Assembly: GCA_951406725.2 (NCBI GenBank)
Contig: OX597818.1
Location: 67,518,001 to 67,582,000 of the forward strand
Origin: Octopus vulgaris
Lineage: Eukaryota
Direction: 5' to 3'
Length of the DNA: 64,000 bases
Below are positions 19,514 through 55,051 of the stretch, piece by piece. The translations under genes were made by a program, and so were the position numbers. Each line of letters starts with the position of its first letter. Within the stretch, counting starts at the first letter, position 1. Under the pieces are notes generated by a model. That model had not been told where the DNA came from, did no database searches, and saw only the letters and a program-made list of their open reading frames with translations.

Positions 19514-22204
19514 TATTCCCACGCATATAAATATTATTCTATTTATGGGAGGAGCCCTTGTTTCTCATCTCGCATGATGATTTTTGCTACATATATCTGT
19601 GTGATATATTGTTATAATTCATGGTGGTCATTTTCTACCCCCTCCTCCTTGAACTACATAAAACTGCTTCCCTATGCCACCTGCTGTCTTGAGTCTGCAC
19701 CGTCTCTCACTACACTGCATGCTATAGGCAACATTCCTAATCTTACAGTCAGCCTATGGATTCATCCTACATACTATACAGTTGTTATCCGCAAATGGGG
19801 GCATTTTGAATGGAAATGTTCTACAATGGAGGCCTTTCGAATGAATCTGTTCTACAGATCAGGGATTTTATGGGTGTCCCTGGCCTTTCAACTACTTCAA
19901 TCCATAGAGGTACTTTAAGATTTTCCTAAAGAGGTATGCGAGTTCACTGGATGGGGTAGCATTGACGATCATGTGTACGTCTGTCGTTGTGTGTGTGCAT
20001 GCGTGTTGTGTATACCAATATGCACAAAGATTTCACTGCATGCATGGCTAGGTACTTGTATGTGTGTACAAGAAATGTCCGCTCAGATGTCAGGAACAAC
20101 GATACACTCTCCTTTTAACACTTATTTTCAGCCGACATGTTTTCCCTTCATCCAATATGCAGACATCTTCGCGGAGAGCGAACCTATTAGAAATTACAAT
20201 TCGAGCTCCCCTTGTTTTAGATCCCAGATTTTCTAACCAAAAAGATATTTAGTATTTTCTATGCTGGGTATAAAATATCTAAGTATTACATGATCACCAT
20301 AGTTACATTTATAACAGAAATCTAAACAAGATATCTCCACATTGATTTGGTTTTTCTACCCTAAGTCACAGAGCATATTCTTTCCTTTTTAGTAATATTT
20401 CTAACAACAATCCAGAATCCATAACCGGGAATATGTTGATATAAGACTCAGCTGATATCTAACCAGTATTAATTTAGACAATGGTTTACTTCACTGCATC
20501 GGAGTTCCGTTCAACAGTCTTAAGTGCATACTTGTTATCTTAAGTAGAGAAGTGCCCTCATTATATTTATCCGAATGTTCCTTACCAGAGATACCATTGT
20601 TACATTGTTCCATCACTATAATCAATAGAATATGAAGCAGAATATTGAAATAGTTCTTTGGAGGAAATAGATTTTCCTAAGATTTGAATCTGTTGAAATT
20701 GCGTAAAGCAACGAGAAACACAAAACAACTTTGTCATATTTCAGCAATATTTTGTTATTATAATGAAATACGCATTCTCCATCATGATATCCCACAGATA
20801 TATCATTATAAGAATAAACACGAATATCAAAAGTAAGGATACGCCAAGTTTTCACATAGACATATTTACTTTTCGTAAGAATGAATAGAACCACGCCATA
20901 TTCTTTTGTGCTACATATATATTGTGAGAGTAAAATTTCTTAAACATATGAACACACTAAATAATATCCTTCGTAGCATCAGTAATTGTCCTTCATTTAT
21001 ATACAACTTCATATTACACAGATACTACTTATGTTGGTTCTTTCTCTTTTCGTCAAATTTTCCTTGTTTCCTTGAGATTTCCTACAATCATATTTCAGAA
21101 TCCAAAAGTGTCTTCATTGTTTCCCAATCGTGTTTCTTGCACCGAGGCAATCGAGAAATGAATTAGAAAAGATTCTGCTGCTATTTCTAGTTAATTACTT
21201 GACTAACGAATCGCTGCATCATGAGCATGATTTGGATTGTTATTAATAGTTAATTATAAAAAATATAATTACCATTCTTTAGAGGCAAATCGTATAATGC
21301 TGTGAGAGAAAACCAGAATCTGAAACGTTGTAGATTATTGGAATATTTCGCAGAAACAGAATTAACAACCAAGAGCTGAAGATTATGCTTCGATGGGTTT
21401 CGGAAAATAAAGATAAAGTTGTTATTCAAAGAATGCATATATTGTAGTGGAAGATGTGTTTGTGATAACACAAATGTCTAAAAGACTCAAAGAAGTGGGG
21501 CAAAGATTGCAAGAAATCTTTGTGTTAACGGTCAAATTGATTTAATGCAATCTGAACATGACAGAATTTGCTTGCCGCAAGTAGCACATAAAATGCGATA
21601 TGACTTTATTAAATAAATGCGCAGAACCATTGGGTGGAAATGTCGTTTATAATACTGAAAAATTGTCATAAAATACAACTAAGCATAAATTGAAGTTACA
21701 TTGATTGGTTAGATTCTGTTCGGTATTCACAAAATGGTGGATTAAATGAGTGTATGTTAGTTTAAAAAGCGGTTGTACATCTGCCTCATATGGTACAGTC
21801 CAAACTGTTATGTTTCGTTGAGGTTATATGTCCCAAAAGAAGTCCTACTCGAACACAACGATAATCAGATGTTACCTGTACTTTCAACTGAGTATATTGT
21901 CCAAGGTGAAATACCTGCTTCTACTGACGGCTGCATGTTAATGTTGGAAGGGATTCAACTGCGACTTTAATCCAGTAGCGGTTAACATCGAGACATATAT
22001 TTATATATGCGTATATTCATAAACATTCGCATACAATGTTGTATATATCAATTAAAACTTATTAGCTATCGATCAAAGAACCAAAGCAATTTCGCGCCTT
22101 GAAATGATAATATTGATCCCTTTTCTTGACGCCGGCAGCGAAAAGCAGCCGAGAACTGGCGAGCCAAGGAAGAGGGGACCAAACACGAGAAAGTGAACAT
22201 GAGA

Positions 22205-22695: not shown

Positions 22696-23600
22696 ATTAA
22701 TTAATATGCAATACAGAAAAGGAATATACAAACATGAAACAAATGCGCAATAAACAATATATGAACGAAAATGTATTCAAGAGGCGATCATGAGTGGACC
22801 CCTTTTAGGGATTGTTTACAGTGTCTTTATATTTTCGTACATCTGTTTCTATCGTTTCTCCTCCTTTTTCTCCCTATCACCTCTCTTTTACCACTTCCCT
22901 CTCAACACTTCTCTGCTGTTGTCTTTCTTTTACTTTCTATTTCCCTTTTACTCTCTACTGTCCGGGGATCTCTCTCTGAACCCTACAGTTTTTCTCCTTC
23001 CTACAACAGGCACGAGACCCGTGATCAGCGTCATCACTTATTCTCTTTTCCTTTTCACGCCGAAGCAACTGGTCACTTTTCACCTCCAGCTTTCAACACG
23101 TTTTGCTGTCCATCTGTTGTCATGTTTGTAATCCTGTAGGATATTCTTCCTGGCGCTAACCAAAAAGCATTTCATGTCTGGTCCTAAAGACCCATTCTTT
23201 TTATTTATTTCATTTTGTACACATCTCTCTTGTTTGTTTTCATCATTTTCCCTCATCCTTCCACTCATGGTCTCGTCGTCTTAAATATTTTTTCTTTCGT
23301 ATATTTTATATTGCACATTTATTTCATGTTTCTATCTTCACTTGCATAATTGTTCATTTTGTCATGTTTGATCCCTTGTTAGTTGGCTTGCTATTTCCCG
23401 TTGACTGATCTTTGGCGACGCCACCAAAGACGAGCAGTATCATCGTTTGAAGGTGCAATATTCCACTGATCGTTTGGTCGATAACTGATGAGGATTTGCT
23501 GATCTTCTATGACTGATTTCCATCTCGTTTGCGTTTTGCGTTTGTTTTTTAACTTATTATTTGATGGAACACAACGGACTGTCTCTTATTTTGTCCACAG
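22696..23600 (+). mobile_element. PLE-like non-coding repeat with degenerate inverted segment, related to 54350-54965
   Basis: 22696-22798 is an imperfect inverted copy of 23260-23352. It shares a CT-rich tract, CACG.GACC, CGCCGAAGCAAC and TTGGCG..CCAAA..GAGCA..CTGATGA with the 54.4-54.9 kb repeat. Confidence 0.55.
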
Positions 23601-24719: not shown

Positions 24720-25870
24720 CACATCTGAGGAATTGCAACCGTGTTTCGTGGTCTTCTACCACAACAGCTCCTTTATGGGATCCAGTTAACTCAAGATATC
24801 ATCAGGAGGAACCACGTCCGGTTTCGGCCCCTACTCCTCTATCGCTTTGACGTGGCGCCCCCACCCCTTTCGGAGGTGTCTTCAGCTCTGGTGTTGGGTG
24901 CATGTCTTCTTTCTTCTTCTTTCTTCTGTTCACTGACCTCTTCCATGTATCGTCAGCGAGTGTCAGCCGGTGTCAGCCGGTGACTGACTGACTTGTCAAA
25001 GTTTTCCCTTTAAATACCTGCCGCTTAGCTCAAGCAGGCAGCCCCAGCAAGTTGTCACGTGACACTGTCTCGCCTTAACTGACTAGTGAAGGCGCGTAGT
25101 TTTAGCCCGCACTTTTTCTTAACGACCATCACCTGTCAGTCAGCGAAGCTGATTCAGTGTCAGCTTGTCTCACCTAAGGACGTTATTTCCCGCCGAGTTT
25201 GTTCATAAAGTCTTTCGGCGTTGAATTTTTGTTAGAAAAGTCAACTTATTATTGAAAATGAAGGACGGTACTTTCAACAACTCTTATAAAGTTTTTTTTT
25301 TCAATCTTGTAAAGTCTAATATATTCTTGTTTATCAAAGGTGAAAATTTAAACTTGCGAAGTAGAAAAACAGCTTTAAAAGATGGAATGTTTACAAAATT
25401 CTATTATATCAAATATGATTTAAATGTTCACAACATTCAATGATGCAAAAAATATGGAGCATCTTGATTAAATTCACAAAATTCAATAGTTTTAGAAGTG
25501 ATCGATAAGGAATGTGGATCTCCAAAGGTTCAATAATACTGAGGTCAGAGGGAAAAAAAAAACAAGAAAGAAATGAAGATAATAAAAAGAAAAGGGTTTC
25601 TTACAGTTTCTGTGATTCTTTTCCTTCGTGTGCAAGACTTCTCTCTTGTAATGGTATTTTTTTGGAATCCAGTTATTTATAATTCTTTTTCCGTGAACGT
25701 ACCCGATTTTCTATTCGTTAAATTTCTAATGGCGTCTCATTTCTCTGGTGGTCAAGTTTGTCGTTCTGCCTGGTTGACTTCCCTGTGGGGAACAATCAGC
25801 AGCCGTTCCAGTTGGTTGATTCTTTTAAAGAGACGTTTTCTTATATTTACTTGAGAGATTTTTGAATTAT
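24720..25870 (-). mobile_element. Possible decayed/deleted Penelope-like element
   Basis: Weak minus-strand motifs (IRNLTNRKSGTFTEKEL; LSIIEPLEIH), followed by a GC-rich 3' region carrying HHR core strands at 24795-24860. Confidence 0.35.
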
Positions 25871-53926: not shown

Positions 53927-54348
53927 ACCAATTCAGGACTGAGCACGAAAAGGTGGTCAGTCAACATGCTAGATATAGACGTCAAATCGCCATTCTCCAC
54001 AAAGATTTTGTTCTCAAATAAAAATAAAATTCAGCACGACCTAAAGCAATGGATAACACAAAAGAAATATACGAAATGGAATAATCACCTACGTACCGAG
54101 CGGTTTCAGCTATTAATATCACAAGGATATCTGTAGCTTCGTCAGCGTAGTTTGTTATGAGCATAATATGCTGTACTAGATGAAAAACGGTACCGGAGTC
54201 TCGTATATTTCTTTTGTCTTATCCATTGCTTTAGGTCGTGCTGAATTTTATTTTTATTTGAGAACAAAATCTTTGTGGAGAATGGCGATTTGACGTCTAT
54301 ATCTAGCATGTTGACTGACCACCTTTTCGTGCTCAGTCCTTAATTGGT
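53927..54348 (-). mobile_element. PLE pLTR-like foldback: 148-bp inverted arms enclosing an HHR
   Basis: 53927-54074 and 54201-54348 are near-perfect reverse complements. Confidence 0.9.
54089..54150 (-). ncRNA. Type I hammerhead ribozyme, intact consensus
   Basis: Minus strand: CTACG-CTGACGA-AGCTA..TAGCT-GAAA-CCG-CT-CGG-TA-CGTAG. All three stems pair and the site is GUA. Confidence 0.9.
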
Positions 54349-54349
54349 C

Positions 54350-54965
54350 CCCCCCCCTCTACGTTTCTCTATCTCTCTCACCTCCAGTCCCCTCGATCTG
54401 TCTCTTTCTTCTCCTCCCTCGTCCACCTTCTCTCTCTTTTCATCTGTCCCTTTCTCCTTTCTTTAGTTCTCACGTGACCGCTAGCCACTGTTGAGCGCTC
54501 TTTTCGTTCCAGCAGTCGCCGAAGCAACACGTATTTGTTCGTCTCCCTGCGGCCATTAGGCACAACTTCATAAGCCAGCCCTAAACTCAACTCGTCCTGT
54601 CGAAAGACCCTTGTCCTACGTCCTGGTTTTGTTTTGTTTTTTTATTTTTACCGTTATTGTTTTTACGTTTTTGTATTCTTATTGGTGTCACGTATTCTGT
54701 ATTTTTGTTCGTGTACTTCGTTCGTTTTCCGTCCTCGTGTTGTATACATTCGAAGCTTTCTTCCAGGGGATCTAATGCGCTTGGCTTAGATTTCCCTTGG
54801 CGGGCTGCCCAAATCGGAGCAATCTCAAGATTAATCAGCCGAAATTGCTAAGATGATCTGGTTCTTGACTGATGACTGAGGGCTTCGAATGTCCCGTCCT
54901 GTGGTTCTTGTGTCGTCTCTGTGGTGTTTCATGTTCTTGTCCATGTCTGTAATTATTTTTACTGT
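54350..54965 (+). mobile_element. PLE-like non-coding repeat related to 22800-23600, carrying permuted HHR strands
   Basis: Shares CGCCGAAGCAAC and other motifs with the 23 kb repeat. A CATTCGAAGC/GCTTCGAATG stem encloses a structured region. Confidence 0.55.
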
Positions 54966-54968
54966 TTA

Positions 54969-55051
<83 letters not shown>

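Follow-up and report, generated by a model that had tools for sequence, protein, structure and literature searches.

An animal-genome hammerhead core opened between A9 and G10.1, a candidate self-cleaving ribozyme in a young non-coding repeat of Octopus vulgaris

The window analysed here is a stretch of 64,000 nucleotides of the Octopus vulgaris genome (assembly GCA_951406725.2, contig OX597818.1, positions 67,518,001 to 67,582,000), and near its end lies a copy of a repeat that we call family A (Table 1). The carrier is a young, non-coding unit of ~770 nt that forms head-to-tail arrays, is 5'-truncated and is inserted in (TA)n. Its copies follow one another at a spacing of 768-780 nt, 13 of 30 loci contain more than one ribozyme fold, and 17 of the 40 best matches are 100% identical over 191 nt. 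The 5' ends are variable and some copies carry 5' inversions, and all share one 3' end, which lies at an internal TATATA ~152 nt past the cut predicted below. An 18-nt exact anchor places family A and its sisters in at least 4,617 positions of the genome; the corresponding lower bounds for two other families that carry the fold are at least 962 copies (family C) and at least 485 (family D). The copy in the window starts right at the end of a pair of perfect, MITE-like inverted repeats of 148 bp (53927-54074 and 54201-54348), and the inverted repeat holds a canonical-order CTGACGA..GAAA match on the minus strand.

Table 1. Features of the window and the basis on which each was placed
Feature	Positions	Strand	Basis
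Second family B fragment (upstream part and region of blocks S and G)	22058..22185	-	76% identical to the family majority
Old copy of family B with decayed ribozyme fold at 23417-23491 (GAAA lost)	23123..23531	+	Sequence against family majority
Family C fragment, predicted 3' UTR of an RLE-type non-LTR retrotransposon; fold, with slight decay, at 24887-24788	24727..25190	-	Family comparison
Family A copy, truncated at its 5' end; the unit is a retrozyme-like, non-coding tandem repeat of ~770 nt	54348..54976	+	Identical copies, arrays, common 3' end
P0, 5' strand (pairs with 54878-54892)	54746..54760	+	15 bp, compensatory change, p = 4e-5
Side hairpin, second helix inserted between A9 and G10.1	54763..54800	+	-18.4 kcal/mol, 0 of 20 shuffles
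Stem II, 5' strand GGCUG (G10.1 = 54803), supplied from upstream	54803..54807	+	Cross-family pairing, energy comparison
Tying helix of stems I and II, 5' strand (pairs with 54855-54861)	54809..54815	+	p = 1e-4
Block S: stem III strand AGCAA, U16.1, C17, predicted cut, stem I strand UCAAGA	54818..54830	+	Sequence; 5' ends of genomic copies pile up behind the bond
Block G: stem II 3' strand CAGCC, GAAA, stem III strand UUGCU	54836..54849	+	Sequence, family majorities
Tying helix of stems I and II, 3' strand	54855..54861	+	p = 1e-4
Block C without stem II strand: stem I strand UCUUGA and CUGAUGA	54863..54875	+	Sequence
P0, 3' strand	54878..54892	+	15-bp pairing
(TA)n(TG)n microsatellite, insertion target	54977..55046	.	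Nearly all 30 loci end in (TA)n

The letters of a hammerhead core can be read on the plus strand of the family A copy. CUGAUGA occupies 54869-54875, with A9 at 54875; GAAA occupies 54841-54844, with G12 at 54841; and AUC occupies 54822-54824, with U16.1 at 54823 and C17 at 54824, which puts the predicted cut at 54824/54825. Stem III is AGCAA-U/A-UUGCU (54818-54823 with 54844-54849; 5 bp plus A15.1-U16.1), and stem I, of 6 bp (54825-54830 with 54863-54868), adjoins CUGAUGA directly. An earlier interpretation made from the letters alone (the sequence-only reading) had described 54818-54879 in just this way, with the same stem III, the AUC site and a 6-bp stem I abutting CUGAUGA. The blocks follow one another as cut site (S), GAAA (G) and CUGAUGA (C), an order that matches none of the circularly permuted orders CGS, GSC and SCG (types I, II and III). 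CUGANGA, GAAA and NUH are present at the site and retained in all family majorities, and stems I and III remain in register with the core, their letters differing from family to family. The idea of a hammerhead core in non-circular strand order, with stems that differ between families, is thus borne out.

Could such an arrangement have come about by chance, or be the remains of a decayed canonical type I hammerhead? CUGAUGA itself occurs in the window at chance level (12 against 9.8 expected), and a search of the window against Rfam (E<=5) returned microsatellite noise, with no hammerhead among the best 150 of 266 matches. However, a search in the S-G-C order, as the sequence-only reading had advised, found one match in the 64-kb window and none in 150 shuffles, both strands included (stem I of at least 5 pairs, stem III of at least 3, upstream stem II of at least 5 Watson-Crick pairs), and stems I and III alone likewise gave none in the shuffles. 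Genome-wide, GAAA before CUGAUGA occurs 28,646 times against 2,156 control matches, the former count being inflated by an unrelated canonical type I hammerhead, family E, which makes up 44 of the first 100 listed matches by eye. The copies are moreover young and identical, and the cross-family pairing of stem II, the tying helix and P0 presented below refutes chance and decay, an explanation to which we give next to no credence. By extrapolation, opened-core copies number roughly ten thousand in the genome. Family E (L113, L117, L122 and others) is itself a very abundant repeat that carries a canonical minimal type I hammerhead and adjoins (AAT)n runs; its hammerhead has one extra A between A9 and G10.1, as in CChMVd.

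What supplies stem II? The model that follows from the sequence-only reading is a plain type-SGC or trans hammerhead whose stem II comes from the strand after CUGAUGA, two nucleotides out of register (CUGA/UCAG), and in family A alone this pairing is possible. The real partner instead lies upstream, outside the coordinates covered by that reading: GGCUG at 54803-54807 forms a perfect, in-register pair with CAGCC at 54836-54840, the G10.1-C11.1 pair adjoins G12, and the calculated energy is -6.8 kcal/mol, compared with -2.0 kcal/mol for the downstream CUGA/UCAG. Support for the upstream partner comes from a comparison across families, in which 249 GAAA..CUGANGA contexts from fetched loci were grouped into 59 clusters, 12 of them with at least three members. 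The tested set comprised the ten clusters with stems I and III (eight families and two singletons); four of the 12 larger clusters were left out, namely family E, one consisting mostly of truncated copies, and two lacking stems I/III. Since stems I and III served to pick the families, their chance control is the shuffle descriptor given above. The singleton L087, probably a chance occurrence, was included in the tests of stem II and the tying helix and excluded from those of P0 and the side hairpin. Cluster 11 (L189, L192, L178) is an abundant repeat with GAAA before CTGACGA that fails the stem I/III test.

Upstream partners with at least 5 Watson-Crick pairs were found in 7 of 10 cognate combinations and in 13 of 90 non-cognate ones (cross-family permutation, p = 2e-4); downstream partners of this length were found in none of the ten families (p = 0.55). 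The misses are family C, through erosion into G runs, family B, whose GCGCC/GGCGC has been eroded by CpG decay, and one probable chance singleton. Sister subfamilies of family A have changed CUGAG to UUAAA or AAGAA and left GGCUG/CAGCC unchanged, and the strand after A9 is occupied by another helix, P0. These observations argue against a stem II from the strand after CUGAUGA, a model that we regard as very improbable. A stem II displaced 5-15 nt downstream was also considered and failed the cross-family pairing test. In many copies of family C the stem II 5' strand is GGCCCC; this segment (window positions 24859-24854) is far more variable than its neighbours and often consists of G runs, a variability that could reflect mutation bias or selection for non-cutting templates. 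As the 5' strand of stem II lies upstream of block S, the chain is opened between the core bases A9 and G10.1.

Three further helices complete the predicted fold. First, the 5' strand of stem II continues in the 3' direction and pairs there with a 5' extension of the stem I strand (6 of 7 pairs), tying the two stems together and providing the tertiary contact between stems I and II that is expected of a hammerhead; across families the cognate pairing score is 5.55, compared with 3.83 for non-cognate combinations (p = 1e-4), the start of stem II having been placed by hand for families B and C in some helix tests, including this one. Second, an unbroken block C, with the stem II strand directly after CUGANGA, is absent, and the chain instead enters the closing helix P0 after A9. 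P0 shows one compensatory change, from A-U to U-A, in a subfamily, and its pairing in fixed register after A9 scores 5.31 against 2.77 in eight families (p = 4e-5), family F8 having been dropped since it lacks the hairpin. Third, a side hairpin fills the interval between P0 and G10.1, and none of 20 shuffles was as stable; it abuts stem II with a gap of 0-2 nt in 8 of 9 family sequences, stands clearly beyond shuffles in only 4 of 8 families and was not found in the noisy majority of family F8. Two other helices were tried: a first closing helix, CCCUUGG/CUGAGGG, reached only p = 0.057 and was superseded by the 15-bp P0 from a wider window, and a pairing of the strand that follows A9 with the linker preceding stem I was rejected (p = 0.71).

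Most of eight unrelated repeat families of the genome have these helices too, spelled with other letters (permutation p from 2e-4 to 4e-5). Taken together, the pairing tests show a predicted fold with a five-helix junction at the core, in which the SGC/CSG circle is circularly permuted through an opening at A9/G10.1. The whole fold extends from 54746 to 54892, and because all of its helices close in cis within 147 nt, there is no need for the CUGAUGA strand to act in trans between two RNAs, as had been suggested, or for a dimer. Nested minimum-free-energy folding did not recover the pseudoknotted core, whose strands prefer other pairings in such calculations.

The same layout had also been reported at 23430-23499 and 24795-24860. 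Both sites exist and the majorities of their families show the full layout; the copies in the window are decayed, however, and the second is on the minus strand. At 23417-23491 (plus strand) GAAA has been lost and reads AATA, and at 24788-24887 stem III contains a broken pair. The latter site belongs to family C. In families C and F5 we found an open reading frame that encodes a reverse transcriptase domain (Pfam RVT_1, E = 8e-22) together with a CCHC knuckle and the nuclease motif RPD..ELT.P.EE, the F5 and family C proteins being 52% identical, and the fold lies 300-431 nt (in one case 661 nt) past the reading frame at 19 of the 25 loci found by protein. By these sequence features we assign families C and F5 to the 3' UTRs of RLE-type non-LTR retrotransposons of the R2 superfamily, presumably 'HERO-like' elements. 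Young F5 copies form clusters in a segmentally repeated region (L220-L227; G000:C29:18.63 and 20.69 Mb), with 3' ends 99-100% identical and the opened-core fold present.

Does the site cut? On a cut RNA, reverse transcriptase would be expected to run off immediately behind the break, and the 5' junctions of genomic copies should record the position of the cut. Among the first 100 listed copies of family A (read by eye, anchor +58), 20 junctions fall at +1..+16, four of them exactly at +1, compared with 9 at +17..+50 and 3 at -1..-30; the respective rates are 1.42, 0.27 and 0.15 %/nt (p = 1.6e-5 and 6.7e-6). In a second sample the counts were 22 vs 6, and a scripted check of 30 of its copies placed 11 junctions within 16 nt and 1 at 17-30, with 18 copies longer. 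In the same kind of tally by eye of the first 100 listed copies, family D, which is unrelated in sequence, has 23 junctions at +1..+14, 11 at +15..+35 and 2 at -1..-22 (p = 1.9e-6 and 3e-4). Shortened copies thus start just behind the predicted cut, and the site likely cuts there; we take the 5'-junction step in two families as an indirect sign of cleavage. Several additional loci bear on the same interval. In a fold-back insertion of family D (G000:C1:89951424-89951520) the inverted arm ends exactly at the predicted cut, and several internal deletions end at +1..+17. At G000:C1:55200664-55200768 the upstream part of family F6/F10 is joined to family A at +14, a chimera that suggests a template switch at the ribozyme. 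Contig depth rises at the site in sequencing runs that we guess to be RNA, an observation that we do not count as evidence, as contigs cannot show ends.

An alternative is that no cleavage takes place, the pile-up arising from TA microhomology, stalling of the reverse transcriptase or an internal transcription start, and the hammerhead letters being an inherited, inactive scaffold. Many family A junctions do lie on TTAAT at +7..+11, a place to which TA microhomology could draw them by itself, and the helices inside the core may distort the A9/G10.1 site, which is the metal site of the hammerhead core. Yet family D has no TA-rich stretch at +1..+14 and shows the same step. Stalling is a poor explanation because the helices that are copied first, stems I and III and the tying helix, which the enzyme must open, show few junctions, and the core letters have been retained across families whose stems share no sequence. 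We hold the absence of cleavage to be quite unlikely.

A somewhat more serious alternative, though still an unlikely one, is that the fold is real but nicks the RNA slowly or reversibly, or serves the reverse transcriptase as a structural handle. The products would re-join while held by stems II, III and P0, and what the site chiefly yields would not be monomers and circles. Some two thirds of the copies extend across the site, and the 5' product would remain paired by three helices. No pile-up is seen in family C, where ~3 of 100 copies are truncated in this interval, and in its 3' UTR a lasting cut would sever the reading frame from the priming end; as the products of the RLE families would stay paired through stems II, III and P0, a reversible nick is the likelier role there. 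Against this as a general account stand the sharp drop in junctions at the predicted bond in two unrelated families, the copies and the one fold-back locus that end at +1, and the arrays of more than one unit, which fit circles. On balance, we consider it probable that the site is a hammerhead core whose chain, broken between A9 and G10.1, runs from the 5' strand of stem II through the cut site and GAAA to CUGAUGA, and that it cleaves itself after C54824.

We propose that transcripts of family A arrays would be cut once per unit after C54824 to give monomers, which could be re-joined into circles; the array structure is what suggests circular RNA in this family. A Penelope-like reverse transcriptase/endonuclease, of Naiad type by affinity, would then prime at the internal TATATA 152 nt past the cut. 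Rolling round the circle, it would produce arrays longer than one unit, and running off the cut 5' end, it would leave copies that start just behind the cut. The family A unit has no RT-like frame, none of the family A loci in a set of 131 loci matched either of the two reverse transcriptases tried, and the unit shows no similarity to intact GIY-YIG elements. A search for a mobiliser among 30 GIY-YIG loci, mostly an intact element with a C-terminal nuclease, found neither the motif nor similarity to the unit. That intact element (L293, L298 and many identical copies), which we take to be Neptune-like, is a Penelope-like element of 781 aa with a C-terminal GIY-YIG domain and a CxxxxCxxC linker; its 3' region contains repeated TGACGTC and CCAAT-like boxes, and CUGANGA/GAAA is absent within 1.2 kb.

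The affinity to Naiads comes from published consensus sequences. In the supplement of Craig et al. 2021 (PMC8557442), an inspection by eye took in 60 of the 62 occurrences of CTGATGA and the first six of five other core words. Eight Naiad records, including three from Acropora and two from Octopus, carry the opened form with an upstream stem II of 5-6 bp (one has a stem I of only 2-3 bp), and the fold sits at the 3' end of the consensus. Family N matches, by eye, those 3' ends of Naiad_Obim and Naiad_Ovul that carry the fold; the sequence upstream of family N is stop-ridden only and no GIY-YIG and RT reading frame lies beside family A, the Naiad link being to the published consensus by eye. 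Five nematode Naiad records in the same supplement have, again by eye, an intact type-CSG hammerhead with tying helices of 8-12 bp, a type otherwise known only from two sequences of metagenomes.

We put forward tentatively, as something rather short of an even prospect, a broader proposal: that the opened, reverse-order form, a fourth wiring with a five-helix junction, is the standard ribozyme of Naiads, their retrozymes and some RLE elements, amounting to some ten thousand copies per genome that current models do not see, and that two unrelated lineages replicate through cut, re-circularised RNA. A working ribozyme of the opened form would overturn the rule of an uninterruptible CUGANGA block in hammerheads and would offer structural work and ribozyme design a new topology with an insertion port inside the core. 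It would also explain why Naiads were reported without hammerheads, would be the first biological context in animal genomes for the non-circular permutations, and would mean that RLE-type non-LTR elements have a hammerhead in their 3' UTR. The step at the 5' junctions, for its part, offers a purely genomic read-out of the position of a ribozyme cut.

How does the octopus fold compare with known systems? The sequence-only reading had put forward the S-G-C order as a candidate new topology; in the available text of Eckert et al. 2023 (PMC10085705), this order is already named type SGC and shown to cleave. Like the type-SGC and type-CSG RNAs (HRIMA-1 and variants, PMC10085705), the octopus fold has a reverse cyclic block order, a full core and a short link from stem I to stem II, and a helix that joins the far ends of stems I and II and is linked to the far end of stem III; the octopus tying helix corresponds to the 'I' helix required by type SGC. 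In those RNAs, which come from metatranscriptomes (SGC) and metagenomes (CSG), CUGANGA and its stem II strand are assumed in the text available to be inseparable, whereas the octopus form, from an animal genome and its retroelements, has a split block C, a stem II 5' strand from upstream and two helices between A9 and G10.1. The only precedent in the searched literature for an insertion at this position is the (+) hammerhead of CChMVd (PMC3705267), in which, according to the available text, an extra A10 between A9 and G10.1 is tolerated and compatible with cleavage, while its change to C or G is harmful; there the insertion is one unpaired base in a circularly permuted hammerhead, and here it is two helices and the chain ends. 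Likewise, the PK hammerhead (PMC11300833) takes helix II from a non-local strand, but as described in the portion available its loop pairs as a pseudoknot with pistol-like connectivity, and it shares neither the block order nor the A9/G10.1 opening.

Among mobile elements, the non-LTR retrozymes (PMC7229834; bioRxiv 10.64898/2026.07.22.740005) resemble family A in being dispersed, non-coding head-to-tail repeats with one hammerhead per unit and in their link to Penelope-like elements; they differ, in the text available, in having type I hammerheads in units of 150-450 bp, compared with ~770 nt and the core-opened form, and in that their circular RNA has been shown, whereas that of family A is inferred. 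Naiads (PMC8557442) share with family A the (TA)n targets and the tandem and 5'-inverted insertions, whereas family A encodes no protein. In the available text, Naiads have no canonical hammerhead, with only 'core' or 'half-core' matches in some, and those of cephalopods are inactive remnants. Known ribozymes of RLE-type elements are HDV-like and located at the 5' end (cited in the available part of PMC13725137), in contrast to the hammerhead fold in the 3' UTR of families C and F5. The core-opened wiring had no description in the literature searched, and the two reviews consulted describe the PK variant only or no such variant. By its predicted fold, the octopus site is a new topological variant of the hammerhead ribozyme, and what is new in it is the opening of the core between A9 and G10.1, the S-G-C order itself being already known.
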